Virus record (IMG/VR): IMGVR_UViG_3300021446_000049
Coordinates: 1 to 44,620 of that record
DNA: 44,620 nucleotides
Source: a virus
Taxonomy: Duplodnaviria > Caudoviricetes
Strand: one strand, 5' to 3'
Made by a program: the position numbers and the translations under genes. The notes under the pieces were generated by a model, which made no database searches, was not told the DNA's origin, and saw only the letters and a list, made by a program, of their open reading frames with translations. This document shows, one piece after another, positions 1 through 17,426 of this stretch. The stretch's first letter is position 1. Each line of letters opens with the position of its first letter.

Positions 1-510
1 GTTCATCTGTGCCATCGAGATATTGGGCATCGACAGCACCTTCTCGATCATCTCCTTGTGGTTGTCCGCAATGGCTTCTACCTCTTTGGCAGACTTGTTC
101 TTCTTCAGCTCGTTCTTCTGTTGGCGCAGCGTCTGGATGTCCTCGCCAATCTGTTGGGCCTTCGCCTCCGTCTCTGCGGCATTTCGAATGTCCTGGAGAC
201 GGTCGATGGCCTGTTCAATCTGGGCAAGTACCCCATCGGTGGCGGCCTTTCGAGTAGCCGCCCCTGTAGACGGATGCACGGTGGCGACCCTGTGGTGGTC
301 CTTGAAGCCAAGATCGTCCCGATGAATCACGGATTCCAAGGTCGCTTCTCCGTTCTTGTCTTGCTGTCCTTCGGGAATGGGTTCGTTTTTGACCCGAAGA
401 TACAGGCGAAGAGCTTCATCTTGGGTCCGTGATACGTCCAGAATCCGCTGAAAGAGAATGGACGGCTCCCCATTGGGGGCATATACAGTATCTACGGCAC
501 AGTCTGCCAT
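1..510 (-). CDS. Large cargo/ejection protein, N-terminal 170 aa only (runs off window edge)
   Basis: Not in ORF track. Manual translation from ATG at 510: MADCAVDTVYAPNGEPSILFQRILDVSRTQDEALRLYLRVKNEPIPEGQQDKNGEATLES..., open to position 1. Starts 3 nt after the RNAP stop. APNGxPSxL and DxNGE motifs resemble those of giant phage polyvalent/ejection proteins; position matches the large gene after the RNAP in crAss-like phages. Confidence 0.85.
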   Translation of the reverse strand, partial: MADCAVDTVYAPNGEPSILFQRILDVSRTQDEALRLYLRVKNEPIPEGQQDKNGEATLESVIHRDDLGFKDHHRVATVHPSTGAATRKAATDGVLAQIEQAIDRLQDIRNAAETEAKAQQIGEDIQTLRQQKNELKKNKSAKEVEAIADNHKEMIEKVLSMPNISMAQMN

Positions 511-513
511 ATG

Positions 514-3500
514 CTAACACTTAGTGATGATATGCTTACGGAGTGTTCGAAAGGTCTCTCGTTCTTGCTCGGTGAGAGTGCTCAGGAACTCCCCAACGCT
601 TTGCCCCAGTGACTCTTTGTCTCCCTCGATGTAGCGGCGGGTGGACTCGTAATTTCCATTTTGCATGTCTTTCACTGCATTTGCCAACGGATTGTCACTT
701 GTCTCTTCCCCACGCTCCTCAGTGGCCTCCTCTCTTGCGTCGTTGTTGCGCTCTTTCTTCACCTCATTTGCCTCTTCTTTCGGCACAGCTTCGACATCTT
801 TCCGCCGAACGTCGACCTTCCCCGTGGAGTGAGTGACGATCTCGTAGGTCTGGTCTTTGTCCTGTGAGTAGTACTCTTCGGTGCTTAGGCTTTCGTCGGT
901 AGACTTGCCCTGGTTGGTGTCTGTAGTGTCCTCTGCCTCGAAGAGGCTGGTCTGCTGCTCGATCGTCATCGTGGAGACAGTCAGCCCCCGTTCCAGAAGG
1001 CTATTTCTCTGCACGCCGATGTCCAGGGTTTCGGCAAACTTCCGCACGAAGGCTTTTACACGGTCAACGATCTTCTCATAAAGGTTGCGGTTTTTGCCGA
1101 CCGTCTGGTTGTTTGCCCACTGTTGGAACTCCGGGTTCGTGAAGAAGGCCACCAGCGTCTCGTGTGGATTCTCCCCCGCCTTGAAGAGATTGCGTTTCCG
1201 ATCATTGAACTGGTCGAGTTGGACATTTTCTCCACTGCGAAGCTCTTCCTGTGTCCGAAGATACTCATCAAAGTTCTCGAACTGATTGCGTAGCAAGGAC
1301 CGGACGTCGCTGTTAAGCTGCAAGAGAGCGCGTTCCTCCGGCGTTCGGTTGGAGGGGTCCTTCTCTATGGCCGTGGTGATGGCATCGGCAGTGAGGGCGT
1401 GCAGCACCTCGTGGAGTTCCACTGACGCAGCAAAGTCTGCCTCTGCATCGGGGTTTCCGATGTTCAGAGCGCTGTTGAGGACGATGGTGTTTGTATCCGG
1501 ATTATACTTCCCGTTGACCTCCCCCAGGTCCTTTACCTCGAAGTTTACATCCAGGTCTCCCTCCTGCTGAATCCGATTCATGAGCTGGGCCACAAGACGC
1601 AGGCTGCTTCGAACCTCCTTGTCCGAAGAGATCGAGTCCATCACCTCCGGTAGCGATGCCTCGCTTGAGGCCGGAAGGTGGTGCCTGTAAATGCCGTGGC
1701 TTTCGACGGTGGGGCTGGTGATCTTCGTGCCCCCTTCCGGAATGTTGAGGCCATTGCCGAAGTATTCTGAGGACGCCGTGATCTTCACCGCCGATGACAT
1801 TTCCGGGACCCCAATGCCTTCCGGGGGAGTGTCTCGGCGCTCAAAAGGATTGTACTCCACCATATCCGTGGGCCCACCCGTGGCCGACCCAAGGGTGCTG
1901 ATCTCCCCGTACCCGGTTCCTTGGCGAGTAAACAGCCGGAAGCGGCCTACGTCACTGTCGAAAAACGAGATGTACTCGACAAGCTGTGGCCCTCTGGACG
2001 TGTAGCGCGTTAGCTCCTCGGGCACCTCGTCATTTATAAACTCGATTTTCGGTCCCCGGACAGGCCCTTTCACCTTCTTGTCTATGATCTCATCGGTAAG
2101 CCGTGGGGCCTGTGAGGGATTGTTCTGGAGATACTGTTGCAGGAAGGACGCCCCTCCGGTGAAGGCGTCGAGATTCATGTTCTCGATGGCCTCCGTTACC
2201 CGTTCTTCGTTGAAGAACTGCGGAGGGATGAGGCTGTCGAAGGTCCTTGGGCTTCGCTTTTTGCCCTGGACGTACATGGTGTAGAGGACGAGGTCCTTGG
2301 CCATCTTCTGTTTCTCCTCGACCGGGGAGGAAAGAAGGCCAGCCAAGTCCTCAACGATTCGCATTTCTTCGGTCTCATCCAGCTTGATCGAGTTGTAGTA
2401 GAGTTCGTCGGGGGTGTGGGCATAGGTCTTCTGTAGTGCAGTCTCTCCTTCCTCGTATCCGTATTCCTTGGTCTGGTCTTTCAGGTTGATCTCGATGAAG
2501 CGAAGGAACGGATGATCGTTGGCCCACCCGTCTTTCCGGGCATTGGAAAGCCTTCGAGCAAGAGAGGGGCTGTCTTCGGTGGTGTACAGCAAGCGTTTAC
2601 GCAGATCTGAAAGACTCTCGTCCGTCAGTGCATCTTTTGCGCCGGCGTAGACCATTGACTGAAACTCCTTCCACACCTTAAACACCTGCTCTTCAGACAT
2701 CCGATCATCCTTCATCGTCTCCATCTGAGTGATGGCCTCCTGAAAGGGAGTGGAATCATACTGGAAAAGGTTTCCGAAGAGCTTATCGGCAAGCAGGTAG
2801 GAATTCTTGGCGTAGTCTCCGTGCTCCGTCGTCGGATTGAAAGAGTGGGCCTCGTTGGGCACCTGCAACTCTCCCCCGATAGCCATTGGACTGGACAGGG
2901 GAAGGTCAAAGGCATCTTTCAGGGCCTTCATGTGCCGCCGAGATTCCAACAGGTTTTTTCCAGGTCCCTTTCGGTTCCCGAAGTTGAACGCAGACTGGAC
3001 GGTATCCAGCGTCTTGTTCACCTCCAGAAGCCTGCGGAACGCCTCCAGATAATTGTCTTGGCGTCGGTTCCAGGCGTCGTCTTTGCTGGGATTTTGAAGG
3101 TCTTCCAGAAGCTGCTCTGGATCCGAAATCATAGGACGCCCTTGGCCTCTCTGTGCCTGCGCCTCTTCGATTACGTCGGAGAGAACGCCGAAGGAGGACC
3201 CGCTTTTCAGCGCAGACTTGCGGCGATCCACCTCTCCCAAAATGTTTTCGATGATCGGCTGCCGCATGAGCCGTGTTACATGCTTTAGGTCGGGGCCAAT
3301 GCCCTGCTTGTCCGACATCATGAGAAGGGGGAAGATAGCATTGGCCGTTTCCTGGTTGGCCCCCAGCGGCCCAAGAATTAGCTCCTTGGCGTTGTCTACC
3401 GCTGCATTCTGATACAGGGTGATGGCATCATGTGCGGACAAGTCCTCTGCTGAATGCCCAGACCGGATGCTGGTCGTCTTCCCCAGTTCGGAGAGTTCTC

Positions 3501-6500
3501 TGGTTCCCCCATCCCGGCCCTGTACCATGATAGACATGGCGTTTTCTTCTCCCCCTCCAGGAAGAGTCTGAGGATGCTGCTGAAGAATCTCATTGGTCTG
3601 TGCAGCAAGTGAAGAAATACCCACGAGGCCCTTTCCGTCGAGCTGCCGCCTGTAATCTCCTTGCTGCCGATCTGGGAGAATGAAGTCCTCCCTGTTGAAC
3701 CCCTCCACGAGAATGTCTTTTTCGGCCCCAAGGTCGTCTCTGTCCAGAGGCTGGAGCACATTCTTTGCGTGCTCCGGGCTTCGGGCAATGTCCATCATGA
3801 GGTCAAGATACTGGTCGTCCAGTGCCTTCCGGGTGTCGTAGTCAAACTCCCGGACAGACTGCCCAAAACCCGTCTCCGTGGCTTCGGGAATGTCTTTGTC
3901 CTTGTCGATCCTCGTTAGATTTCCGTCTTCGTCCAGCGTGTACTGCCGGAGCATCGTGTTCAGCTTGTCCACGTCGAAGTCCGATCCCATCTGGCTTACA
4001 ATCTCGTCGGGGACGAAGGCGAGGTTGTAGAACGACGGGTCCATGAAGCCTACGATCTCGACGGGAAGGCCGCTGTTTGGGCCCTGGTAGGGAATGCGAA
4101 AACCCAACGCCTTTAAGAGTGAAGAATCGATCTTCTTTTCATCAATCACACTTCGGCCATCTTCGGTGGTCTTGGTGAACTTCTCCATGGAGATGATATT
4201 GCCGTCGCTGTCGGAGAAATACCAAGGCACGACGATCTGTGCAGGCTCTGTGGCCGTTGGGTTTCCGTCTTCGTCGGTTTCGACCTTCATGTGGTTCAAG
4301 CCGGTGGAGGGGTCAAAGCTTTGCTTCATTACCAAGTCGTTCTCCGACATGTCTTCGAACTTCAGTCCCGCACTGGAGGCCTGGACGAAAGAACGCCCAT
4401 GGGCTTTTCTCCGGACAAGCCTATCGGTCACAATCGACATCAGCAGGCTTTCGATCTTGGTCCCGCTTCCGGTAAAGGAGAGGGGCTTTTCGAAATCTGA
4501 TGCCGTGGTGTCTTTGATCTCTTGGATTTCCAGCTCCGACCAGTTCCTCGCCTGAGCTTCCCGAAGGACCATCTCTTTGATCTTCTCCCCGTCCGGAAGT
4601 ACGTCTCTGGACTTTCCTTCCAGATCTGCGCCCAGTTCTTCGGCCAACCTGGACGCCTCCATTTCCATGATTGCCTTGTTCAGCTTCCGCTTTTGACTCA
4701 GCGCTTCCGCCTTGTCGATTTCGCTCCCGTCTTCCCGAACAATGGTGGGATCAGCCCCCGCAATGGCCAGCTTGTTCATCTGCGTAGAGACGCTGATCTG
4801 ATCCTTCTTTCGCGGGATGACGAACTGCACTCCGAATCCTGTGCGATTTAGAGACACCGAGGACCCCTCCAGGTCTTCAGCAAGTGAGCTTTGCTCTTCG
4901 CCCACTTCATTTGGATCCGGTTCCCGAATGGCGTCGTTCTCATCAAAAATGTCGACCGGATTTTTCTGCCCGACCTTCACGGCACTTCCGTAGGCTGCGC
5001 GGTCTACGCCTGCCCTCTCCATGGCCTTGCGGAGCTTGTCCAGCTCGCTTCCAGAAGTGAGGTTCGGCACCAGGGGAAAGCTGGAGGACTTGATCATCTG
5101 CTGGACATACTGCCCCGCATCCTCGTCCCATCGGTGCCCGCTGTAGAACGGCTTCATGGGGGCAAGGTCGAGCACTTTCATTTCTTCGGGCGTGAGCCGC
5201 CAATCGTAGTTTCCACGGTCCTGTTCTTTCTGGATTCGATCCAGGATGTCTTGCGCCTCTTCTGGATCTATGCGTCCATACTGGATGCCCACCCGAACAT
5301 GCTCGTCCAAGGTGGTGTACTCTTGGGCATCAGTAGACTCAACACCAGTGAATCCTTCGGCCTGCTGCCCATCGAAGATTTTGGCGTACTGCTCCCGCTC
5401 TTTGCTGTCGATGAGCCGGTCAGAAAGGGTGACGAAGTTATAGCTTGCTTCTTCGCCAAAGCTGTGGCTAATCGTCGGTCCCATGGCCTTCGCCAACCGC
5501 TTCTGGAAGTTGCCCAGGGTGGCCTCGATAGTGTCACTACGAGTGTCACCACTCTTTACAAACTGTGCAGGGTCCCCGTGGAAAAGGCGCATCATCTCTG
5601 TAAACCCCAGGACGTGGGAAAGCTGGTAGTCCAGGGCGGCGTATACCTTGGCGTGGTTGCCCGAATACTTGTTCGGCGTCTGCTTCCGCAGGTAGTGCTG
5701 ATTCATGAGGTCCCACACCTCATTTTGGGACCATTCCCTCGCCTTATCCAGCGTCTTCTGCTCGATCCAGTTCTTTAGGGCACCGAAGATCGCCTCCCTC
5801 GATGCATCATTCTGGTTTGGCGGGTTTAGCTTGTAGGTCCCGTCTGCCTGCTCTGTCCAGATGGTTTCTCTTTGCCCCTCGGAAAGCTGCTCCGGGTTCA
5901 GGGGAAAGAGGTAGAAGGTCGATGCATTTCTTGCGTATTCTTCCCCCATCGGATGCTCCTCGAAGGCTCGCTTCTTGGCCTGCTCGTAGGACAGGCCCTC
6001 TTTTTGGAGATAGTTGATCTGCTTTTGCAGATCGTTCTGGACCTTCGTCACCCGATTGATTTCCGACAATGCTGCCCGGTAAAGGGCCGACAGCTCCTTG
6101 TCTCCGATCTCCAGGTCAATGGCCCCAAGCTCACCTTCTTGAAGGGTCTCTGCCTCAATCTCCGCGCCCCACATCCCACCCTTGGTTCCGGCCTGCTGAT
6201 AGTTGCCCAGGTTCGGGACTTGAAGGGCAAAGCTCCGCGAACGGTCACTAAGCGTGAGACTGTTGATCAGGCGCTCGTCTCTGCCATTGTTTTGGAAGAT
6301 CGAGAGGGCAAGGATCTCCTGGTCCTTCGGAGAGAGGTTGTCTCTCGTGGCCGCCGCGTTTCTCTTTGACACCGTAAGGCCGTCTAGATAGAAGACGTCG
6401 AGAGACTCTCTCGTGGCTGTCTGGTCTCCACGGTTTCCGGCCAGTGCCTGTAGCACCGGAGAGTTCCGCTGGAATGGATCTCGAAGACGCTTTCGAGCGG

Positions 6501-8076
6501 TGTCTGGATCTTTGACCCGCTGGATCTCACGAGTAATGCGTTCATGGTCCTGGATCGCGTAGTACTTTTTGTTGACGACGTTGGTGAAGGACGGGGCCCA
6601 GATGTCACTGCGGTAGTCCACAGAGTTGTGAGCCATGTCCCGGAGCCTGCTGGTCGCCGTCTCATCATTGAGCGGAGTCACTTCCGGAAGAGTAGGATCG
6701 CCCTCCTCCTCGGAGTTCTTTAGAAGGGACTGAAAGACAGACTCGACAATGCCATTCTTATCGGCATTGGCAAAGTTGAATTCCCACTCCCGGCTTACCT
6801 TCCCATCCTGGAACGCCTCTAGTGCCGGGATGGGCATCGAGATTCCCAGCTTCTCAAGGATGCCGTGGACCCGGTGTAGATACGCGCTGGATTGGAAGTC
6901 CACGTCGCCCGTAAGGCCGCTGTGATACTCCTTCATCAGCGCCCGAACCTTTTCTTCGTCTACGCGGACGTTGTCTCTCTCGTCGTAGTAGGTGATGTCC
7001 GCTTGGCGGAGAGTGTCTTTCCATTCCTCCACGACGGCCTCTCCTCGCTGAATGCGGTCGGAGTCCCCGACGTAGGTCTGCCACCCGCCCTGCTTTTTTC
7101 TGCTGATGAGGCTGTACTTGAACTTCGCGTAGTGCTTCCCGAAGGCGTTCACGAAGTCCTGCTGGACGGAATCCGGGGTGTTATCCGCCTGAAAGGTCTC
7201 CGCAATCTTTCGAGCAAGCGGATTGTGAGTGCCCTTCTCTTCGAGAACGTCCATGTAGTGCTCGAAGGTACGTGGAAACTCGTCGGACAGTAGGTGCGCT
7301 GTCATATTCCACGCCTTCGAGAGGTTCACGAAGGACGGCATTCCGATGTAGTTGCGGCGCTCTTCGAGAAGGGGATTGCCGTGTTCATCGCTTTTCATGG
7401 TGCCGTTTTCATCCCGCTGAAACTGCACGTCCTTCATGTGGGACAGCACCATCTTCACGGTGGCCGACGCGGTGTCTTTGTTGTTCACCGTGAACCGGAA
7501 GTTGTCTTCCCATGCCTTCTGCTCGAAGTCCCCGCCGCGTTGGGGCCTGTAGGCCCCGTTTTCCGGCTTGATGCCCATATCCTTGAACTGCTGCTGGACA
7601 TCGCTCCAGAAGTCATCGAAGTTGTCAAGCGCTTTGCCTAGCTCAGACTCAATAAAGCCATAGGCTTTTGCTGTCCCTTCCGGAGCATCCTCTTTGCTAC
7701 TGCGGGCCCCGTCCCTCTTAGTCTCTAACTGCGAGCGGGTCTGGGCTTTCAGAGACTCCGGATCGACTTGGATATGCTGTACCTTGCTGTCGGGATCGTT
7801 CTTCGCCTCTTCTGCCTGATTGAAAAGCTCTAGGAGGGATTCATGCGCCAGATACCGAATGGTATCGGTCATCTGCTGCTGCGTGCGCGGGGTAAACCCG
7901 TCGATCAGGCTGGGGAGATAGTCACGAATGATCCGCTCAGGATCTCCGTGATTGGCGACAAAGCGCTTTAGCGCCTCTTCTGCACCTTCAGACTCTTCGA
8001 GGTACCGCTGATACTTTTGAAGGTCCTCGTCGGAGGCAAACTCAACCTTCAGGTCTCCCTGCTCACAGATCGGCAT
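514..8076 (-). CDS. Virion-packaged single-chain DNA-dependent RNA polymerase (crAss-like, phi14:2 gp66 type) with C-terminal zincin-like domain
   Basis: 2520 aa. Catalytic GSDFDVDKL (DFDVD at 3967-3981) preceded by GFRIPYQGPNS; also STDAQEYTT, MKPFYSG, KSSSFPL, SAVKVG, VSTQMNKL, NAAVDNAKE motifs typical of crAss-like vRNAPs. HEVLH at 1399-1413 followed by HETLVAFFTNPEFQ. Confidence 0.93.
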   Translation of the reverse strand: MPICEQGDLKVEFASDEDLQKYQRYLEESEGAEEALKRFVANHGDPERIIRDYLPSLIDGFTPRTQQQMTDTIRYLAHESLLELFNQAEEAKNDPDSKVQHIQVDPESLKAQTRSQLETKRDGARSSKEDAPEGTAKAYGFIESELGKALDNFDDFWSDVQQQFKDMGIKPENGAYRPQRGGDFEQKAWEDNFRFTVNNKDTASATVKMVLSHMKDVQFQRDENGTMKSDEHGNPLLEERRNYIGMPSFVNLSKAWNMTAHLLSDEFPRTFEHYMDVLEEKGTHNPLARKIAETFQADNTPDSVQQDFVNAFGKHYAKFKYSLISRKKQGGWQTYVGDSDRIQRGEAVVEEWKDTLRQADITYYDERDNVRVDEEKVRALMKEYHSGLTGDVDFQSSAYLHRVHGILEKLGISMPIPALEAFQDGKVSREWEFNFANADKNGIVESVFQSLLKNSEEEGDPTLPEVTPLNDETATSRLRDMAHNSVDYRSDIWAPSFTNVVNKKYYAIQDHERITREIQRVKDPDTARKRLRDPFQRNSPVLQALAGNRGDQTATRESLDVFYLDGLTVSKRNAAATRDNLSPKDQEILALSIFQNNGRDERLINSLTLSDRSRSFALQVPNLGNYQQAGTKGGMWGAEIEAETLQEGELGAIDLEIGDKELSALYRAALSEINRVTKVQNDLQKQINYLQKEGLSYEQAKKRAFEEHPMGEEYARNASTFYLFPLNPEQLSEGQRETIWTEQADGTYKLNPPNQNDASREAIFGALKNWIEQKTLDKAREWSQNEVWDLMNQHYLRKQTPNKYSGNHAKVYAALDYQLSHVLGFTEMMRLFHGDPAQFVKSGDTRSDTIEATLGNFQKRLAKAMGPTISHSFGEEASYNFVTLSDRLIDSKEREQYAKIFDGQQAEGFTGVESTDAQEYTTLDEHVRVGIQYGRIDPEEAQDILDRIQKEQDRGNYDWRLTPEEMKVLDLAPMKPFYSGHRWDEDAGQYVQQMIKSSSFPLVPNLTSGSELDKLRKAMERAGVDRAAYGSAVKVGQKNPVDIFDENDAIREPDPNEVGEEQSSLAEDLEGSSVSLNRTGFGVQFVIPRKKDQISVSTQMNKLAIAGADPTIVREDGSEIDKAEALSQKRKLNKAIMEMEASRLAEELGADLEGKSRDVLPDGEKIKEMVLREAQARNWSELEIQEIKDTTASDFEKPLSFTGSGTKIESLLMSIVTDRLVRRKAHGRSFVQASSAGLKFEDMSENDLVMKQSFDPSTGLNHMKVETDEDGNPTATEPAQIVVPWYFSDSDGNIISMEKFTKTTEDGRSVIDEKKIDSSLLKALGFRIPYQGPNSGLPVEIVGFMDPSFYNLAFVPDEIVSQMGSDFDVDKLNTMLRQYTLDEDGNLTRIDKDKDIPEATETGFGQSVREFDYDTRKALDDQYLDLMMDIARSPEHAKNVLQPLDRDDLGAEKDILVEGFNREDFILPDRQQGDYRRQLDGKGLVGISSLAAQTNEILQQHPQTLPGGGEENAMSIMVQGRDGGTRELSELGKTTSIRSGHSAEDLSAHDAITLYQNAAVDNAKELILGPLGANQETANAIFPLLMMSDKQGIGPDLKHVTRLMRQPIIENILGEVDRRKSALKSGSSFGVLSDVIEEAQAQRGQGRPMISDPEQLLEDLQNPSKDDAWNRRQDNYLEAFRRLLEVNKTLDTVQSAFNFGNRKGPGKNLLESRRHMKALKDAFDLPLSSPMAIGGELQVPNEAHSFNPTTEHGDYAKNSYLLADKLFGNLFQYDSTPFQEAITQMETMKDDRMSEEQVFKVWKEFQSMVYAGAKDALTDESLSDLRKRLLYTTEDSPSLARRLSNARKDGWANDHPFLRFIEINLKDQTKEYGYEEGETALQKTYAHTPDELYYNSIKLDETEEMRIVEDLAGLLSSPVEEKQKMAKDLVLYTMYVQGKKRSPRTFDSLIPPQFFNEERVTEAIENMNLDAFTGGASFLQQYLQNNPSQAPRLTDEIIDKKVKGPVRGPKIEFINDEVPEELTRYTSRGPQLVEYISFFDSDVGRFRLFTRQGTGYGEISTLGSATGGPTDMVEYNPFERRDTPPEGIGVPEMSSAVKITASSEYFGNGLNIPEGGTKITSPTVESHGIYRHHLPASSEASLPEVMDSISSDKEVRSSLRLVAQLMNRIQQEGDLDVNFEVKDLGEVNGKYNPDTNTIVLNSALNIGNPDAEADFAASVELHEVLHALTADAITTAIEKDPSNRTPEERALLQLNSDVRSLLRNQFENFDEYLRTQEELRSGENVQLDQFNDRKRNLFKAGENPHETLVAFFTNPEFQQWANNQTVGKNRNLYEKIVDRVKAFVRKFAETLDIGVQRNSLLERGLTVSTMTIEQQTSLFEAEDTTDTNQGKSTDESLSTEEYYSQDKDQTYEIVTHSTGKVDVRRKDVEAVPKEEANEVKKERNNDAREEATEERGEETSDNPLANAVKDMQNGNYESTRRYIEGDKESLGQSVGEFLSTLTEQERETFRTLRKHIITKC

Positions 8077-8120
8077 AGGTACGGGGGCGAGATTTGAAGA
8101 GAGGGCCCCCTAGGACAAGC

Positions 8121-11100
8121 CTAACGCTCACATCGAAGTGTGAAGCGGTCATCCTGTGCAGGGGCGCTTATCTCGTAGTTACTCTCCCCTATTATTGTTT
8201 CTCCAACCGATGCAAGAGCAGGTTCGCTTGCGGATTCGCTAGACCCAGACGCAGGACGTGTGCTAAAGATGTCGTCAACAACAGGGTCGTCGGTTTTCTC
8301 ATCGACCTTCCTCGTCAGCTCCTCGTCGGCCTGTGCCTCTACATCGGAACCCTCCGATGTCGTTTCCCCGCTTTCCTGTCGCAGCTTACTGACGGTTTGC
8401 TCGTCGTTGTAGCTGCTGGGGTAGTCGTACTTGTCTTTCAGGAAGGTGCGCAGGTCATTCCGAATGTCTTCGTCGGCCTCACTCATCTCTTCGAGGAGAT
8501 TGGCCTGCTCTCCCTTGGTGGTGCGGCTGGTAAACTGCTCCATCACAGCCTCGAACATCGGCCCTGAGAGGTCGGCCAAAGACGGCCCCTCTTCTGTTAT
8601 TGCAGGTTCGGAATCCGCGTCTTCCGCGTCTTCTTCTCCATCTTCCGCGTCTTGTTGCTCTTGCTGGTCTGCGTCTTCGGCTGTATCTTCGACATCTGCC
8701 TCTGCAATAACGGCAGATACATCTCTGTCAATGCCGTATTCTTCTTGGAGGCGCTCTTCCAGGGCATTTAAGAACGCAACATCCCCCTCAGAAAGCGTCT
8801 CAAGGGTGCTCGCTGTCTGAAGGAGGGTCTGGAAGGCACTGTCCAGGGCAGCACCGTCTCCATCATCGTAGACGTTTGGCATCACCGGAGACTGGGTTTC
8901 CTCTCGAACGTTGACCACCTCACTGTCGGAGGTTTCTTTGTCGCCCCTAGGTTGATCATCGCTTTGCCGCTCGGGGAAGGAGTCATTGTCGATGGGAATG
9001 GACTCTACACCCTCTGCGCCCAACGTGAGCGTCACAGTAGGCTGCTCAAAGTAGCGCCCCACCTCTTGACCTTCTCCTGTTTCTGTGGTCTCCTCATGGA
9101 CATCTGTGCGAAGATGCTGCGCAAGAAACTGGTTGTAACTGTCGTATTCGGTTCCAGCAACCTCAAAGCTCCCAAGGCCGGAGACGTCCTCTGACCTGTT
9201 TATCTCTTCGAGGTTGACGTTGAGCCACATGTTGTTCAGAAGGCGGCGAACCTCGTTCTCATTGCCCTGAATGCTTTCATAGCGGCTGTCCTCGTCCTCG
9301 ATGAGGTCGGGGTTGTTGGTGTACAGGCCGCCTTGCTGAGATCCGATGTAGACTCCGGTTCCGTCGTTGCTTGCAATGAGATATGTCCGGTCCCCCTTGA
9401 TGTCCTTTCGCTGGAAAAACCTGCGGGGATCGGCGATCGTGGTGAACGCGAGCTTCTGGATTTCCTCAATTTTCCCCTGCTTAATCATGCCCAGGAGGAA
9501 GTTTGCCGCCGGGACCCCTCCAATATCTACGTCTTGAAGTTTGGGCACTTCAACGGGAACGGCCACCTTATCCCCGTTGGCCGATGGAAGAATGATTCCC
9601 ACCGATCCTTCGAGAAACTGGCCTTCCTGGTTGAAGTCGTTTACCAGCTCCTCATCGGGCTTCTGCTGCCCTCTGATTCGAGGTTCCCCATTTCGAATGA
9701 CGTAGATTTGGAAGTCGGCGTTTTCCAGGTTTCGATCCTGGTCTACCAGAGCCGGAACTGCTTCCTCCAAAGGACGCATGTCTCGAATGAGGTTTCCATC
9801 TTCGTCTTTTTCAAGGACCGTTTCCCCGTCCTCAGTCTCCGTTTCCCGGTAGTGGACAGAGACGTGGCCGCCTCTCTTTCCAGATACCCGACCGGGGATT
9901 CCGTCTTGGGGGTTGTCCTGCTGCTTGGCCTGCCCGATAATCTTGGCCCGGAGTTGCAGGTTTTCCTCCTGCTGCCTCTGGATGTTGTCTTCGACGTTTT
10001 CTGTTTGAGCAACGGTGGTCTCCGGCCTGATGAAGTCCAGCTCGTGGACATAGCCCACCAGCTCCCCATCGTGGCGCACTTCGATCTCAATATCTCCGAT
10101 GTCCTCGACGCTGTCCAGATCAATGTCCTCTTCAATCCGGGGGTCGGTTACGTGAAAAGTCACGCGGCTTCCTTCGCCAAACTCTTCGGTCTCTACAAGC
10201 GGGTTCAGTCCCTCGCTGCGGTCATTGGACACCGGGGTTGTCCGATCCCCCTCTTCAGTCTCTTTCGACGCATACGCCAGTGCTGTGCCTGACTGGACGA
10301 GCTTCTTGCGGCTGTGCTCGTCCTGGGTGCCCTCCGCAGTCTCGTTCTTGGTTTCCTGGAAGTCCTCCTGTGGGGTTTGCGGGGGCTCGTCAATTTCAGT
10401 GGGACTTTCCGTGTCTGTAGCGTCCTTCAAGTCGTTTTCCTCGATGTCGTTTTTCTCCGATACAACGAGGTCCTCCACCTCCGTATAGTCAAAAGGTCTT
10501 CCTTTCACCTTGGCCCTCGCTGCCTTTTCTACGTTTTCTTTCTTGGTCTCCTTATCGAAGTCCTCGTTGGAGCGGATTTGAGCAAAGGTCTCCTCCAGTT
10601 CATTGCGAATCTGCTGTAGCTCCTGCTCAGACTTCGCGGCCTCTGCAAGCGGATTGAAGTCTTCGGATCCATCCTCTTCCGCCGAAGAATCCTCGTCAGT
10701 TGTTGCCTCTGTTGTAGCCTCTTCGATAGTGGTATCTTCATCCCTTTGTTCATCCAGCATGTCTTCGGCGGCATCGGCCAGCGGGTTTACCAATTCATTC
10801 GTAGACTCTTGATCGCCGGAGTTTTCATCTACAGATGAGGCGTCCTCGGCGGTAGCTTCCCGCTCCCGCTTTCGCTCTTTCCGCTCCTCCGTCTTCTTTT
10901 CTTCGGCGGCGCTTTGGGCCTCCTGGTTGACGATGGTAGACTCGTTGGGACTGAGGTCATTGGCTGCCTCTTGAGCATCTTCAGCGGTCTCTTCCTCTTC
11001 GACCTTTTGGCGGCCCTCCTGTGCGCGCTCCTGGATCTTCCGGGCCTGCTCTTTCTCCATGCGCTTCAGCATGTCGGCCCTTTTTTCCGGGTCTCGGTAT

Positions 11101-13706
11101 GCCTTATAGTCCTCGTACAGCCGCTCTTTTTGCCGTCGAAGGGTCTCTTTCCGCATCCTCGTGGTGCGGAAACTAGCACGATTTTCCGGGTCCATCTTGA
11201 TCACCGCATTCGGAATGGACTCCATCTGTGTCTCCGACTCCGCTTGCTGCTTGGCCTGATTCATCAGCTCCTTCGGGCCACGGAAGCGAGAGGACTGCGT
11301 GAGCGTCTTTAGTTCCTTCTCGACTCCACTGCGCATGAACTCATTGAACTGCTCTTCGGTAAACCGACCGTCTTCTCCGATCAGTCCTTCCTTTCGGCCT
11401 CGTTGCCGAAGGGCCTCCATGACGCTATCGATGTCGGCCTCACTGACTACCTGCTCCTCGTCTTTCGGAAGGGGCTCTTCGACTTCTCGATCACTGTCTT
11501 CGCCACGGCGCTTGTCGACGATGTTCTGGAGAGCCCCGGCAAGGGCTTCCTGTCGAAGCTGTACCAGAGACTCCATTTCGGATTTCATGTTCTCCTTGAC
11601 GGTCTCTGGATCCGTCTGATTAATGGTGGCCTCGTCCTCCCCCGGAAGCTTTTCAAAAGACTCGATCAGGTCCTGCTCTTCCTGTGAAAGTTCTTCAAGC
11701 GTCGGGTCAATGAGGCGGGCACTGCCGTAGAGACGCCACGCCTTTTCTGCCATTCGTCCCCCGGCTTCCTCCGGACTCTGGCGCATGTCGGACTCGATGT
11801 CTTCCTTCTTTTGGGACAGCTCGTCGACGAGATCAATGTAGTCGTCAATCGTGTCCTCGTAGTGAAAATCCGAGTCCTCGTCGGTCTCGAAATTGTGTTT
11901 CTCATCGGCCTCCTGGTTGTCCATGTCTTTCCAGTCTTGGGCGATTCTCTTCATCTGCCCTTCCACCCCCGCCTGGATGGACCCAAGAATGGTGGCCGAC
12001 ATGATCTTCCGCCGTCCCTCCAAAATCTTGGAGGTGTCGTTCTCATTGGCCCCCTCGTTGATCATCTTCCGGCCTTCCTTAAGCTCGTTGGCCCGCTCGA
12101 TGAAGTGCTCCTTCTTCCGATTGAAGTCGTAGATTTCCTGTTCGGTCTGAAGAGTTTTGGCCGACACACGATCCCCTGTAAGATCGGTGGAGACACCAGA
12201 CTTCTCTGCGACCCAGTTGGCAATGGCCCCGATCTTTCCCTGGGAACTGTCCTGGGCGTCGATCTCCCCGTTCTCAATGGCTTTCTGAATGGCCTCTGGG
12301 CGCTCGTGGATAGGAAGTCCTCGAACAGTCATGTCCTGCATCTTGCCCCCCATGGCCCCCATGGCCGCAGCGTAAGCCCCCTCCCCCGTGAAAACGTTGT
12401 CTATAAACCGCTGTCCGGCCTTCGAGAAGGACGTCTGGTCTGCCTTTCCTTCCGCCTGGGCAAAAACGTTGGTCGCTTCCTCCGCTGCCTCCTGTAGGGG
12501 CTCCTTCGCTTGCCGAACCATCCAGTCTTTAGCAGGAAGCGAATAGCCCATGCCCTCTACCCGCTCTATCGTCTCTTTGAGGCTCTCTCCTTGCTTCTTT
12601 GTTAGCCCCAACTTCGACATCCTCTTTATCACCTTCGGGCTTCGGAAAAGCGGTGTGAGCCCGGTGAAGTTTAGGGTGCCGACGAGGGCGGTGTTCAACC
12701 CGGCAATCCGTGCAGCCTTTTTCGAGGCTGCGGCCTTTGCAAGCCTTCGCGCTTCTTTGGGGGATTTGCCCTGCTCCAGGTGGGCCTGCTTTGCCTTCTC
12801 GAAGATCTTGGGGATCTGTCGCATGGCCTCTGATGATCCCTCTGCGTTGGCCAGGGCATACCCACTGGCAAGCTGTGAGGCAATCTGAGCGCCCTGAACG
12901 ACCTTTTGACTGCCGCCCATTGAAGAAGCGAGTGCCGCCAGCCCTTTGCCGACCGTAGCCCGCAGTCCTCCGGAAATCCCACCGAAGGCCACCACGGACT
13001 GCCCCACTTCTGAGAGACTAGTCACGTAGTCCGTAGGATCGTAGGGGTTGAAGATCGTATTGGGGCTGGAGTGTGTCTCCAGGGCATCGACACTATTGAG
13101 ACCCTCCCTCCACTCTTTCATAGACCTGGTAATTCGGTTCCCCACGTCCCCAGCATCGATGTCTGCTTGCTGGAATGCCTGATCTTCAGAGGACACTCCG
13201 GCCAGTCCCTGGGTCCAGGAAATAAACTCCTTCAACTGATCATCCCAGGAATCAACATCGGCAAGGTGGGCCACGTTCTCTACCAGCCGCATTCCCGCAA
13301 GCGGGAGGAACTTAGTTCCCTCCTTGGCCAGGGTTCCGGCAAAGGTTTGCGCATCATCTTTCAGCTTCTGCGCTTCTCTGGGAGAAGTGGTCTTTAGCTT
13401 GACCGGACGACCAATTTCATCTTCAAGCTCGGCGCTATCCCGTCCAGGAAAGACGGCTGAACTAGACAGCTTAACGTCGCTCGACAACTGAGAATTGTCG
13501 ATGGATGAGTTTTCGAGCAGACCCACACCCTCTTCGTTATCGTCGGCATCAACGTCTTCGGGTGCCCCATCAGTGATGACGGGCTCCGAAGACTTGTCCG
13601 ACGAAGGGTTCATTTCTTCATCCTTTTCCTCCAGAGACTCGTGTGTGTCTTGCTCTCTCTTTTCGGAAAAGGATGGGGTGTCGCTTGGAAGGTCTGAAAG
13701 GGCCAT
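8121..13706 (-). CDS. Large cargo/ejection protein (candidate inner-membrane channel former)
   Basis: 1861 aa, very acidic. N-terminal third has Gly/Ala-rich hydrophobic helices (VVAFGGISGGLRATVGKGLAALA; GAYAAAMGAMGG) and an EAAEEATN motif as in podophage ejection proteins; coiled coils; directly upstream of the vRNAP. Confidence 0.8.
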   Translation of the reverse strand: MALSDLPSDTPSFSEKREQDTHESLEEKDEEMNPSSDKSSEPVITDGAPEDVDADDNEEGVGLLENSSIDNSQLSSDVKLSSSAVFPGRDSAELEDEIGRPVKLKTTSPREAQKLKDDAQTFAGTLAKEGTKFLPLAGMRLVENVAHLADVDSWDDQLKEFISWTQGLAGVSSEDQAFQQADIDAGDVGNRITRSMKEWREGLNSVDALETHSSPNTIFNPYDPTDYVTSLSEVGQSVVAFGGISGGLRATVGKGLAALASSMGGSQKVVQGAQIASQLASGYALANAEGSSEAMRQIPKIFEKAKQAHLEQGKSPKEARRLAKAAASKKAARIAGLNTALVGTLNFTGLTPLFRSPKVIKRMSKLGLTKKQGESLKETIERVEGMGYSLPAKDWMVRQAKEPLQEAAEEATNVFAQAEGKADQTSFSKAGQRFIDNVFTGEGAYAAAMGAMGGKMQDMTVRGLPIHERPEAIQKAIENGEIDAQDSSQGKIGAIANWVAEKSGVSTDLTGDRVSAKTLQTEQEIYDFNRKKEHFIERANELKEGRKMINEGANENDTSKILEGRRKIMSATILGSIQAGVEGQMKRIAQDWKDMDNQEADEKHNFETDEDSDFHYEDTIDDYIDLVDELSQKKEDIESDMRQSPEEAGGRMAEKAWRLYGSARLIDPTLEELSQEEQDLIESFEKLPGEDEATINQTDPETVKENMKSEMESLVQLRQEALAGALQNIVDKRRGEDSDREVEEPLPKDEEQVVSEADIDSVMEALRQRGRKEGLIGEDGRFTEEQFNEFMRSGVEKELKTLTQSSRFRGPKELMNQAKQQAESETQMESIPNAVIKMDPENRASFRTTRMRKETLRRQKERLYEDYKAYRDPEKRADMLKRMEKEQARKIQERAQEGRQKVEEEETAEDAQEAANDLSPNESTIVNQEAQSAAEEKKTEERKERKREREATAEDASSVDENSGDQESTNELVNPLADAAEDMLDEQRDEDTTIEEATTEATTDEDSSAEEDGSEDFNPLAEAAKSEQELQQIRNELEETFAQIRSNEDFDKETKKENVEKAARAKVKGRPFDYTEVEDLVVSEKNDIEENDLKDATDTESPTEIDEPPQTPQEDFQETKNETAEGTQDEHSRKKLVQSGTALAYASKETEEGDRTTPVSNDRSEGLNPLVETEEFGEGSRVTFHVTDPRIEEDIDLDSVEDIGDIEIEVRHDGELVGYVHELDFIRPETTVAQTENVEDNIQRQQEENLQLRAKIIGQAKQQDNPQDGIPGRVSGKRGGHVSVHYRETETEDGETVLEKDEDGNLIRDMRPLEEAVPALVDQDRNLENADFQIYVIRNGEPRIRGQQKPDEELVNDFNQEGQFLEGSVGIILPSANGDKVAVPVEVPKLQDVDIGGVPAANFLLGMIKQGKIEEIQKLAFTTIADPRRFFQRKDIKGDRTYLIASNDGTGVYIGSQQGGLYTNNPDLIEDEDSRYESIQGNENEVRRLLNNMWLNVNLEEINRSEDVSGLGSFEVAGTEYDSYNQFLAQHLRTDVHEETTETGEGQEVGRYFEQPTVTLTLGAEGVESIPIDNDSFPERQSDDQPRGDKETSDSEVVNVREETQSPVMPNVYDDGDGAALDSAFQTLLQTASTLETLSEGDVAFLNALEERLQEEYGIDRDVSAVIAEADVEDTAEDADQQEQQDAEDGEEDAEDADSEPAITEEGPSLADLSGPMFEAVMEQFTSRTTKGEQANLLEEMSEADEDIRNDLRTFLKDKYDYPSSYNDEQTVSKLRQESGETTSEGSDVEAQADEELTRKVDEKTDDPVVDDIFSTRPASGSSESASEPALASVGETIIGESNYEISAPAQDDRFTLRCER

Positions 13707-15775
13707 TACTGATTGCTGTTAGGGCGAAACTTTTGTCCCCAGTCCAGGGCAATGCCCCGATTCTGAAACCGAATATTCTGGTCCATTACTTCTTGCTCTC
13801 GTTCGGATAGATCTTTTTGATCGGCGGCCAAGAACTCTCGAAGACCCCCCACCGTCATCGGAATGCCGTTGTTAGTGGCCGTTCGCGCAATTTGCTTGAG
13901 GTCCTTAATCTTTGCATCCCGGCTCTTGTTGCTCTTGGCGACCTCTTTGGCCGCTTTTCCGTAGCTGAGAGACTGGTTGTTGCTGCGCACCTCATATCGA
14001 GGTTCAAAGGTGCCGGTGGACCGATTTCCCTGTGCCCGTACACGCATTTGTACACCATTCCTCCTGTCTACCTCTTTCCAGTTGTTGTCCAACTGGACCC
14101 CTTCGAGCTTCTGGTTACTTCCAATGATTTGGGATACGTCTTCGCCTAAGATGTTCTCGTCCTTTATTTCGTTTCGGACTTGCTGAGTAGACTCAATGAA
14201 GTAGCTTTCTCCCTTGGCGATGTTTTCGACATATCCCTCGTTTGAACCCCGGTATCTCATTTTAATGTAATCCCCATTCTTAGAGATTGCTACCGGATCG
14301 GAGTTCAATACTACTTCTCTTTTTTCCTGAGCAGGGGTAATACCAGTCAAACCCCCGGTCAAAAAGCGCTGGTTTGGCTCTCCCTCTAGCCGGGGAATCT
14401 TGAGGCTCTCTGGGTTATTCAGCATTGTGTCCATCGCATTTCTCATTCGCCCCCGCTCCTGATCCTGGTTGATCCCGATGAACTGTTGATCAATGGTCAT
14501 CTGCTCGATCTGTTGCAGATCCTTTTCCATGTTCTGAAACTCCGTGTAGGCTCCTTCCCCAAACTCCTCGTTGACACGCTGTTTAAAGCTTTCGCTGTTT
14601 TCAGGATTGATGCCCCGTCCGGTCACTCCTCCTCCCATCACGTTTCTCGATTCTTCTCCCCCTTGGGCCTTTTTCTTCAAGTCCTGGTACCTCTGATAGT
14701 CGCTGCGCCCAAGAGCACCCTCCCCATCTGAGCGGCCTTCGAAGTACCGATTCTTGAGTTGTCGAACCATTCCTTTCATCATTGACCTGGTATCGGAGTC
14801 TGCTCCCCGAGACACATCAGAAAGAGAAACCTGTCGTCCTCCGAACTGCACGATTCCTTCCTTGCTACCGGGGCCACCACTACTCGAACTTCCGGAGTCA
14901 TCGTCCGGATTTCCCTTGATGTTGGTCTGAACTCCGCCCTGCTTTAGGCGGTTTACGGCTCCTCGAACGGAACTCCGAAGACGATTCTTTACTCGATTCT
15001 GGACTTCCTCTTCGGAGAGGTCCGGGCTTGTTCTTCGAATCCGCTCACGTTCGGCCTCCATCCAGTTGGCAAGTCCGGGATCTTGCGGGGCTTGAATGCG
15101 CTGTAGCTCCCCGTTCTCCGTCTTCTGGAATCCCAAAGTTCGAAGGGCCTCCTGTTCAATACGTCCTGGGCGGACCCCCTTGAAGGTGGTTTCGGTGATC
15201 GTGTCCCCTGGAGTCTCCTGGAGACTTTGAGCAATGGTTTGCTTGAAGTTCAGGTCGCTCAGGACCTCATTTGGATTCTTCGCCTCCCCAAACATCTGCT
15301 TCTGTGTCAGCCCTCCCTGGAGCCGCCCATCCTGAACGTTGATGTTGGCCTGTTCTTGAAGACGGGCTTCCAGGGCTCGTCGTTGCTGGGGAGTGTAGCC
15401 TTTGCCCTCTAGCTCCTCCCGTGATTTCTTTAGCTTCTTTTGGTTCTCCTTAAACCGCTGTACACGCTTAGAGAACTCCCGCTTCAAGCGCTTGACTTCG
15501 GCACTCTTGTCCACCAGATCGTTCTGCTGGGCGATCTCCGACAGCTTCTGTTTGAATGGCTGGGCCATCGCACGGAAAGCCTGCCGATTGTTGGGCAGTA
15601 CTTCCTGCTCGGCAATATTGGTGAGCGCCTGATCCATCGTGTCCTTCACGGCGTTTCTCCGCTTCTGGAACCGCTGTGCAGACTGGGCAATCTGCCGGAT
15701 TGGAAGCGGCTGCCGCTTGGGAACCAAGTTCTTTGCGGATCCCGGCGCTGGTTTGCTGAATGGACTTATTGCCAT
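13706..15775 (-). CDS. Cargo/ejection protein
   Basis: 689 aa, Q/K/R-rich helical, Cys-free; TAATG stop/start overlap with the next gene; lies between first cargo gene and giant proteins. Confidence 0.7.
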   Translation of the reverse strand: MAISPFSKPAPGSAKNLVPKRQPLPIRQIAQSAQRFQKRRNAVKDTMDQALTNIAEQEVLPNNRQAFRAMAQPFKQKLSEIAQQNDLVDKSAEVKRLKREFSKRVQRFKENQKKLKKSREELEGKGYTPQQRRALEARLQEQANINVQDGRLQGGLTQKQMFGEAKNPNEVLSDLNFKQTIAQSLQETPGDTITETTFKGVRPGRIEQEALRTLGFQKTENGELQRIQAPQDPGLANWMEAERERIRRTSPDLSEEEVQNRVKNRLRSSVRGAVNRLKQGGVQTNIKGNPDDDSGSSSSGGPGSKEGIVQFGGRQVSLSDVSRGADSDTRSMMKGMVRQLKNRYFEGRSDGEGALGRSDYQRYQDLKKKAQGGEESRNVMGGGVTGRGINPENSESFKQRVNEEFGEGAYTEFQNMEKDLQQIEQMTIDQQFIGINQDQERGRMRNAMDTMLNNPESLKIPRLEGEPNQRFLTGGLTGITPAQEKREVVLNSDPVAISKNGDYIKMRYRGSNEGYVENIAKGESYFIESTQQVRNEIKDENILGEDVSQIIGSNQKLEGVQLDNNWKEVDRRNGVQMRVRAQGNRSTGTFEPRYEVRSNNQSLSYGKAAKEVAKSNKSRDAKIKDLKQIARTATNNGIPMTVGGLREFLAADQKDLSEREQEVMDQNIRFQNRGIALDWGQKFRPNSNQ

Positions 15776-15785
15776 AGTGAGATGG

Positions 15786-17426
15786 TTACAGAGAGTTCAG
15801 GAAACGCTGAAGCTGCTGTTTCTGCGGCCCTTCCGGAAGCGTGGGGATGATGGCCTCAAGCTCTTTCTTTTTCGTGGCGTCGTCCATGCCTGCGAGAGAG
15901 GCCATAATTGCAGTGGTTGAGCGGCTCTGCATCTGATTATTGGCTTGCCTCCGGGCCATTGTCTGGGAGAACTGCCCAATGCCCTTCGACAGCATGTTGT
16001 CCTTGGCAGCGTCGGCCTTTAGCTGTAGCTGACGATTCCGGGCCCTCGCCTGCTGGTTCAGCTTGGTCCTCGTCTTGTCGTTTCTACTTTGGGCCTGAGA
16101 TACCGCCCGCGCCTTCTGGTTTTTCATTTTCTGCTCTTCCCGCCGTGCCTGGGCCAACGTCTTTCGCTTCTGCTTGAGAGACTTGGCGAAAGCGGATTGC
16201 CTGCCTGCCTCACTGACTCCGGGTGCAGTAATGACATCACGAAGCCCCTGATCGATGGCGTTGATCTGGTCGCTTACGTCTACATCGGTATCTATTCGAC
16301 GAAGGGTGTCCACATTTCGGTCGGACACCGTGGCAAGCTGAGGCTCGCCTACGTCACTGTTGCCGAAGGCTCCTCGTGCAGCGTTAACCGCCGCCGGAAG
16401 GAACTGCGCAGCCGTTGACGCGGCACTTGAAGCGTCAAACCCACCAGAACTTCCACCAGATCCCCCTGCCCCCTGGACGTTTCCGTTGGCGTTGACCCCT
16501 GCGAGATCGTTGGTCCCGATGTCTGCAATGGCCCCGTCTCCCGGTGCAGGGCTTGATGCTACAGGTTTCGGAGATGCCACCGGAACCTCGCTTGGCCCAC
16601 CAAGGCTTGCAAAGGGAAACTCCTCTACAGTCGGAGGCTGATTGAACATTCCTGATCCATCGCCTCCGCTTGGAGAAGGGTCTGGGGAAGGGCTCGGAGA
16701 AGCTGTACCTGGAGAGCCCTCATTTCTGGAAGCATTGGCTTCTGGAGTCAGTCCTTTTCCAGTGACCGGGTTGTAGTACGGAGAGAAATTTTTCCCTACC
16801 CCTGGTCCCGCTAGTGGAGAAGGATTTGGACCTGGATCGACGAAGCCACCTGTAGCCATCTTGTTGGACGTAGAACTGTTGGGATTGGAGCTGCGGCCCG
16901 TGGTTTTTTCTTGCTGTGCGGCGAGCTTCTTGATCTGTCTCTCCGATGCCCCCTTCTCCTTCATCCGTTCGTGAACGTCGGCGAAAGTCTTGTTGGTGCC
17001 AGGGACGTTGACACGATCGGAGAAAACGTAGGACTGAAGGTCAATCTGGTCGATGGTCTCCCCGCCTTCCGCTTCTGCGCCTCCGGGAAGGGGGATTCCT
17101 CCTTGCTCGTGGGACGGTCCTTTCAGCTTCCCTTCCGGAGTGGTCACGGGAAGAGCGCCGCCATGAGCAAAGTTTTGGCCGCCCTGAGAGGGAAGGTTGC
17201 GGGCATAGTCGAAGTTGGCGTTGACCTTCTTGGTCTCGTCTTTCGAAGAAAACGCTCCACCAACCACGCCGCCGAGAGCACTTCCAATGGCCGTCCCCGC
17301 AGGAACGGTAATCGGGGCAAAGGGACCACCCGCAACTCCCGCAGCCGCGCCTACTGCACCTCCAACCCCGCTTCCAATGCTGCTTCCTTTTTGACTACCG
17401 GGACCAAATGGATTTGAGAGAGCCAT
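15786..17426 (-). CDS. First cargo protein (crAss001 gp45-like)
   Basis: 546 aa. N-terminal glycine zipper (GSGVGGAVGAAAGVAGG...GSALGGVVGGAF), GPSHEQGGI-AEAEGGET-YVFSDR-KTFAD motif block, Pro/Ser/Gly linker, C-terminal coiled coil; immediately follows the muzzle gene. Confidence 0.8.
   Translation of the reverse strand: MALSNPFGPGSQKGSSIGSGVGGAVGAAAGVAGGPFAPITVPAGTAIGSALGGVVGGAFSSKDETKKVNANFDYARNLPSQGGQNFAHGGALPVTTPEGKLKGPSHEQGGIPLPGGAEAEGGETIDQIDLQSYVFSDRVNVPGTNKTFADVHERMKEKGASERQIKKLAAQQEKTTGRSSNPNSSTSNKMATGGFVDPGPNPSPLAGPGVGKNFSPYYNPVTGKGLTPEANASRNEGSPGTASPSPSPDPSPSGGDGSGMFNQPPTVEEFPFASLGGPSEVPVASPKPVASSPAPGDGAIADIGTNDLAGVNANGNVQGAGGSGGSSGGFDASSAASTAAQFLPAAVNAARGAFGNSDVGEPQLATVSDRNVDTLRRIDTDVDVSDQINAIDQGLRDVITAPGVSEAGRQSAFAKSLKQKRKTLAQARREEQKMKNQKARAVSQAQSRNDKTRTKLNQQARARNRQLQLKADAAKDNMLSKGIGQFSQTMARRQANNQMQSRSTTAIMASLAGMDDATKKKELEAIIPTLPEGPQKQQLQRFLNSL

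Follow-up and report, generated by a model that had tools for sequence, protein, structure and literature searches.

Cysteines of the giant cargo proteins

We analysed a 44,620-nucleotide stretch of viral DNA (Caudoviricetes; IMG/VR record IMGVR_UViG_3300021446_000049), referred to at its full length as the window, and in particular a block of giant virion cargo genes on its minus strand. The window is Crassvirales-like by the Pfam matches of its proteins, which include the Crassvirus major capsid protein (Crass_capsid, E 1.8e-72), the tail ring families CrAss_Ring_1, Ring_2 and Ring_3_4, and the muzzle (crAss_MUZ); no terminase, portal or primase gene was identified in these 44.6 kb. The cargo block follows the muzzle gene and contains a giant virion RNA polymerase with a DFDxD motif, related to gp66 of phage phi14:2. 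We call the polymerase chain protein B, the giant protein encoded before it A, and the one encoded after it C (Table 1; a slash denotes a gene break).

Minus-strand translation reveals four cysteines (Cys) among the 5,786 residues of the cargo proteins, every one at facing termini. The original prediction had read the same coordinates and Cys positions for A, B and C, and they are exact; its reading of the two small cargo proteins, of 546 and 689 amino acids (aa), as free of Cys likewise matches the translation. The odds of all four Cys landing in four 5-residue end slots are ~1e-10 by a post hoc estimate; the real test of the pattern is its conservation in relatives, which holds.

Each of the three proteins has relatives with Cys at the corresponding end. 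Protein A aligns with the A protein of locus L089 (26% over 1,834 columns), whose sole Cys is also third from the end, and it matches polymerase-fused segments from 11 further loci. Protein B matches phi14:2 gp66 (PDB 6vr4, E 3.6e-20) and phrog_16227; its Cys2520 ends a conserved C-terminal module of ~35 residues and is invariant in alignments A2 and A4. Cys4 is the only Cys in the 170 aa of C visible within the window, and the C homologue in L090 (34% over 166 aa), with a full length of 1,184 aa, has Cys3 as its sole Cys. Residues 1–70 of C constitute an N-terminal module, predicted to be a small helical domain by AlphaFold2 run on the C fragment alone (predicted local distance difference test score 91–96 for residues 11–70). 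A fold search with the C fragment found nothing in PDB or BFVD at E<=0.001, the module was not found in ESM Atlas or Pfam, word-based homologue searches with the C fragment and protein A matched only themselves, and a single-protein scan of viral contigs found nothing.

The B stop is followed by one spare codon and then by the C start, in frame (514–511 and 510–508, minus strand), such that readthrough would fuse B and C. The zincin-type HExxH lies in the C-terminal part of the window polymerase (~1413–1399, minus strand), and the p-crAssphage record puts the zincin in the A protein; in phi14:2 it has been placed in gp65 (bioRxiv 10.1101/2020.03.07.982082). The zincin domain appears to move along the chain between phages.

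Table 1. Genes of the cargo block and codons of the four cysteines in the window
Feature	Position	Strand	Remarks
Muzzle protein gene	17433..23390	minus	Pfam crAss_MUZ, E 1.1e-37; upstream landmark of the cargo block
546-aa protein, cargo-1 position	15786..17426	minus	0 Cys; outside the Cys chain; named only by position after the muzzle gene
689-aa protein, cargo-2 position	13706..15775	minus	0 Cys; outside the Cys chain; named only by position
Chain protein A, 1861 aa, first giant cargo protein	8121..13706	minus	Position of phi14:2 gp67 and crAss001 gp47; sole Cys is residue 1859
Codon of A Cys1859, C-end of junction A/B	8130..8132	minus	Translation
Chain protein B, virion RNA polymerase, 2520 aa	514..8076	minus	DFDVD at 1366; zincin-type HExxH at 2222; Cys4 and Cys2520 only
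Codon of B Cys4, N-end of junction A/B	8065..8067	minus	Translation
Codon of B Cys2520 (last residue), C-end of junction B/C	517..519	minus	Translation
Chain protein C, first 170 aa	1..510	minus	Runs off the window; position of phi14:2 gp65 and crAss001 gp49
Codon of C Cys4, N-end of junction B/C	499..501	minus	Cys invariant in alignments A3 and A5

Terminal cysteines mark facing protein ends across relatives

Among the best 120 of 285 polymerase homologues, the window's own protein included, Cys lies within 10 residues of the N-terminus in 69, of the C-terminus in 73 and of both in 31, and 5 lack it altogether; internal Cys number 95 per 424,691 residues. Gene context came from 14 records of named crass-like phages together with 160 loci from environmental data, taken as the 80 best of 189 matches and the 80 best of 140. 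Clustering at 65% core identity reduced 175 loci to 117. A gene was assigned to the chain, without reference to Cys, when it is homologous to a stretch that another locus has fused to its polymerase; a Cys was counted as terminal within 12 residues of an end.

Ends that face another chain gene nearly always carry a terminal Cys (C-ends, 112/113; N-ends, 108/113), so that the paired C-terminal and N-terminal conservation on which the original prediction was to be judged is borne out in these dereplicated relatives. Free ends almost never carry one (block-closing C-ends, 0/76; N-ends after a non-chain gene, 2/69). The counts exclude 41 unassigned ends, 16 of them with Cys. Internal Cys amount to 168 in 595,297 residues, giving a chance of 0.003 per 12-residue end, and the cargo-2 position has a single Cys, not terminal, in 30,079 residues of 42 complete genes. 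The N-side Cys lies at positions 3–8 and at position 2 in 0/108 junction starts; 0–11 residues lie between the C-side Cys and the stop.

Five facing N-ends miss the Cys. L005, L032 and L171 show a Met-x-Cys start 14–32 residues past the first ATG, that of IAS (L007) falls in a stretch with Ns, and the fifth, in L039, is weighed below. Upstream of the two Cys-bearing free N-ends (L114, L115) lies a gene left unassigned; the one in L114 is truncated and itself ends in Cys. In the non-representative loci L134 and L135 a Cys lies ~15 residues from the end. The L069 end was tallied as a block end, though protein C comes further downstream.

Cultured phages obey the same rule. In phi14:2, gp67 has Cys1797 (the last residue), gp66 has Cys3 and Cys2179, gp65 has Cys3, and there is no other Cys. 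In crAss001, gp47 has only Cys2339 (of 2341 residues), gp50 has Cys5, Cys1334 and Cys2404, and gp49 has only Cys5, and the rule is obeyed despite gp47 lying on the opposite strand. The two sets, gp67–gp66–gp65 and gp47–gp50–gp49, are alike in having an orthologous polymerase and block with the same terminal Cys pattern. In phage Fpv3 the sole Cys of a fused protein of 4,287 aa is Cys4286, and the protein that follows has Cys3 and one internal Cys. Gut crassviruses (L003–L008, L169–L174) retain the terminal Cys pairs despite extra internal Cys.

These data bear on whether a DNA or RNA signal at the junction, such as translational coupling or readthrough, gives rise to the Cys codons incidentally. 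The B/C junction of the window is in frame and TGT is the commoner codon, as such a signal might have it, but the reading frames at 112 junctions are distributed 32/38/42, Cys is encoded by either TGT or TGC, all three stop codons are used, and the Cys-to-stop distance varies. The rule moreover persists across ~480-nucleotide gaps and inverted genes in crAss001 and IAS. The mixed frames, Cys codons and stops largely refute a nucleic-acid signal, which we find barely credible.

Terminal cysteines follow gene fusion and fission

The polymerase is encoded in several architectures, and we compared the 76 clusters with both polymerase ends visible, widening the N-terminal window to 45 residues to allow for start calls. 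Three-gene forms (A/B/C) have Cys at both polymerase ends in 27/28 clusters, the miss being IAS; A/BC forms have the N-end Cys only (22/22); AB/C forms have the C-end Cys only (15/15); and fully fused ABC forms have no Cys (11/11; 0 Cys in 55,144 residues). The loss of Cys where neighbouring genes are fused, a check set by the original prediction, is therefore observed in every fully fused form. Fusion of the block into a single polyprotein in some phages has been reported (bioRxiv 10.1101/2020.03.07.982082).

The architectures are scattered on the polymerase tree, on which the fully fused state requires 7 changes; the polymerase-core tree is unrooted and does not separate gain from loss. Independent contrasts, computed without L007 and L069, agree in 9/9 and 6/6 cases on a FastTree tree (p 0.004 and 0.03) and in 8/8 and 5/5 cases on a quick IQ-TREE tree (p 0.008 and 0.06). 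Terminal Cys thus track gene breaks across independent contrasts on the tree.

The same holds where the polymerase itself is broken. In seven clusters it is cut internally at window-equivalent residues 1100–1150, and in L097 it is cut ~75 residues after the catalytic motif (3521–11674 and 11771 onward); both break sites bear a Cys pair and added terminal modules. In the three gaps read between polymerase halves, all from one clade (L065, 11188–11670; L054; L053), there is a 140–161-aa gene, and a gene of that type follows the polymerase gene in L069 (14998–15500); by resemblance we take it to be ferritin-like.

The N-terminal modules fall into four families, each found at either junction position, and a Cys-less relic copy of one lies inside the fused protein of L151. 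A profile of the C-type module of the window, searched against 1.84 billion proteins, gave 385 matches, and Cys lies in the first 12 residues in 146 of the best 150 of these, although the profile itself includes that Cys. An N-terminal module family also occurs internally and without Cys (P0253, 718–929; P0262; the third gene of L055, 113–164), one internal copy directly preceding an ART-PolyVal domain and hinting at an origin of the module among polyvalent-protein domains.

The architectures constrain the partners of the terminal Cys. Pairing within one protein (a cyclised B), or between like ends of copies (A–A or C–C rings), would accommodate the three-gene forms, in which B has Cys at both ends. 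Intra-chain pairing cannot, however, apply to the 37 two-gene clusters, because the polymerase there has Cys at just one of its ends, invariably the one next to the adjoining chain protein, and true free ends are without Cys; we consider either arrangement quite improbable. A bond to a host protein, for example the disulfide-linked gliding or type IX secretion system track of Bacteroidota, or lipid modification as an anchor, might be entertained, as disulfide attachment to a moving track exists in Bacteroidota (PMC12635249). Such a partner is, however, very unlikely, because fused forms need no Cys: the fully fused relatives are Cys-free, and each gene break accounts for two Cys.

Joining of the ends by protein trans-splicing, chemical ligation or a thioester, giving a true polyprotein, would find a parallel in the fused relatives, in which a single chain is functional. 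The N-terminal Cys is never at position 2, which leaves no free N-terminal Cys after Met removal; no intein (Hint) family was reported by Pfam for the window proteins; and up to 11 residues may follow the C-side Cys. These observations make such joining very unlikely.

Comparison with phage A4 and N4-like phages

Cryo-electron microscopy of the cyanopodophage A4 (Anabaena phage A-4L, Saffermanviridae) reveals a disulfide between gp27 Cys1715 and gp26 Cys5 (PMC12002296). The proteins are encoded by consecutive genes, Cys1715 (of 1717 residues) is the sole Cys of gp27, Cys5 is the sole Cys of gp26, and the Cys pair is retained in Pf-WMP3 and PP. The arrangement is like that of the window: consecutive giant ejection genes, with an upstream sole Cys third from the C-terminus and a downstream sole Cys near the N-terminus. 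A head-to-tail link of this kind is thus already known, once, as a structural detail in A4. In contrast to the crassviruses, A4 has one link between two proteins, described as a stabilising detail, and no polymerase in the chain; the crassviruses have two or more facing Cys pairs, the polymerase lies mid-chain, and the rule follows fusion and fission across the order.

The giant polymerases of N4-like phages (Schitoviridae; vRNAP gp50, and gp71 of DEV) are like crassvirus B in being giant ejected polymerases in a Cys-purged ejection operon. The N4-like vRNAP is a single chain with a T7-type fold and essentially no Cys, and resembles the fused, not the split, crassvirus forms: the window proteins carry four conserved terminal Cys, and only the fused relatives are Cys-free. 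Purging of Cys from N4-like ejection proteins has been ascribed to periplasmic passage (PMC11445570), and N4-like ejection has been described as beads on a string (PMC11445570, PMC13434306).

We found no account of the terminal Cys pattern for Crassvirales in a search of open-access full-text literature. The available text of the phi14:2 gp66 preprint (bioRxiv 10.1101/2020.03.07.982082) has 0 mentions of cysteine, Cys or disulfide, and that of a review (PMC10136315) is without mention of cysteine or disulfide. The available text on the crAss001 virion confines disulfides to tail hubs, rings and gp57, the three giant proteins being unresolved there; inter-subunit disulfides do exist elsewhere in crAss001 virions (PMC10172136). 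The relation of the three giant proteins has been called open (PMC13434306).

A predicted disulfide-linked cargo chain

From these patterns we predict that the facing Cys very probably form disulfides between protein ends. It is also probable, at lesser confidence, that A, B and C form one covalently continuous disulfide-linked chain that serves as a tow-line in ejection. Specifically, the last Cys of A would be bonded to B Cys4, and the last Cys of B to C Cys4, in the virion. The short terminal modules would dock the ends during assembly in the reducing cytoplasm, and each Cys pair would oxidise after lysis or in the periplasm. Constrictions under 50 Å oblige the crAss001 cargo to unfold in part (PMC10172136); since unfolding for tail passage would lose non-covalent contacts, the disulfide would hold A, B and C in their fixed order as a single thread. 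The disulfide would do the job of the peptide bond in fused relatives, and other Cys would have been purged against wrong pairings. Ends arriving in the cytoplasm would be reduced, release being incidental.

More tentatively, the C-terminal Cys and the short N-terminal Cys module may constitute a portable coupler that makes any gene break, even one inside the polymerase core, a covalent joint. The resulting thread of ~5,000–6,000 residues could be drawn through the tail in fixed order and would be interchangeable in evolution with a true polyprotein; we hold this broader proposal to be possible, somewhat short of an even case.

The prediction thus retains only part of the original proposal, in which the C-terminal Cys of each protein paired with Cys4 of the next through a disulfide or a shared metal and the chain was released by reduction. 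The pairing stands, in that facing Cys are conserved, flank gene breaks, vanish on fusion and have a precedent in A4; the shared metal is not favoured. Release by reduction as an essential function is contradicted by the 11 fully fused relatives, because these have no Cys to reduce; proteolysis has been suggested for fused forms (bioRxiv 10.1101/2020.03.07.982082).

The facing Cys might instead share a metal ion (Zn or Fe), possibly with two neighbouring chains contributing four Cys between them. Such a site would tolerate both a reducing cytoplasm and an anaerobic host, and the several copies of the cargo packed per head (PMC10172136) could supply neighbouring chains. Against it, a second Cys near the junction occurs in 0/112 cases and His in 23/112, at no conserved position; the three or four conserved Cys or His ligands of an interface Zn site were not found, although two chains might together build one; and the A4 Cys pair is modelled as a disulfide (PMC12002296). 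We regard a shared metal as improbable.

A closer contender, though still an unlikely one in our estimate, is that the same disulfides form but serve only to steady the packed cargo, or to set a 1:1:1 packaging ratio in the head, with no tow-line. All the sequence evidence fits such a purely stabilising role equally, and the disulfide of the A4 pre-ejectosome is described as stabilising, although its authors also propose a chain reaction on ejection (PMC12002296). Docking alone could, however, give co-packaging, and the near-universal Cys pair, present even at breaks in the polymerase core, suggests a need that survives unfolding.

Several results weigh against the disulfide-linked chain. Covariation between partner ends was not detected across junction positions (r 0.026, against a null standard deviation of 0.024), a top-pair test gave p 0.19–0.32, and in 26 three-gene genomes cognate ends correlate no better (rho 0.23 and 0.19) than non-cognate ends (0.28). 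These tests lend no support to partner specificity. Thioredoxin and glutaredoxin, sought as phage-encoded catalysts, were each over the cut-off in 0/31 genomes (10 fused, 21 split), in a search that is insensitive to divergent copies, because p-crAssphage carries annotated thioredoxin-like genes; the one sub-cut-off thioredoxin match is in a fused genome. Internal Cys are 13-fold more frequent in twelve named gut phages than elsewhere (15.2 vs 1.2 per 10,000). The A4 precedent is an analogy, because A4 gp26–gp29 gave no BLASTP match at E<0.01 among all proteins of the crassvirus loci, a result compatible with remote homology. In L069 and L115 a long extension comes after a Cys that sits in a terminal-like motif. 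Finally, L039 has an in-frame break without Cys on either side, and is both an N-end miss and the sole C-end miss.

The L039 break (7921–7931) is a stop and restart inside protein A, intact in the sister loci L038 and L066, and may be a sequence error, a nonsense allele or readthrough. Cognate pairs of modules had also been picked out by eye, and were set aside as unsupported given the null covariation across positions.

Other features of the window

The muzzle protein, at 1985 aa, exceeds the 1,224-position Pfam model, and a 1938-aa fibre-like protein at 27275–33091 has fn3 and tail fibre J matches. The 546-aa protein contains two [FYM]-x-x-G-G motifs, at residues 86 and 190, and in four named relatives the protein at the same position has 2–6 similarly spaced motifs; they are possible processing or repeat signals. 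By eye, residues ~100–140 of the 546-aa protein are similar to the extensions of L069 (RNAP residues 2343–2502) and L115 (16897–18843), which resemble a segment of a small cargo protein. The first of the small cargo proteins also has a Cys close to its C-terminus in L004, L005 and L006. The guanine-plus-cytosine content of the window is 54.5%, and its cargo proteins are acidic (aspartate plus glutamate up to 22.6%), a combination that is unusual among crass-like phages and would fit a salt-adapted host.

Implications for crassvirus ejection

On the sequences compared here, the terminal Cys rule is real, order-wide and phylogenetically replicated. How ~5 MDa of protein is delivered through a tail under 50 Å, and in what order, has been stated as open (PMC10172136; PMC13434306). 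The rule reads out the chain order A–B–C directly, inverted genes included; it would explain the interchange of fused and split forms, and it would equate the split block with the single N4-like chain. In each phage it singles out four residues: in phi14:2, gp67 C1797, gp66 C3 and C2179, and gp65 C3; in crAss001, gp47 C2339, gp50 C5 and C2404, and gp49 C5. The rule suggests that gp66 was crystallised without the partners to which it may be bonded in the virion.

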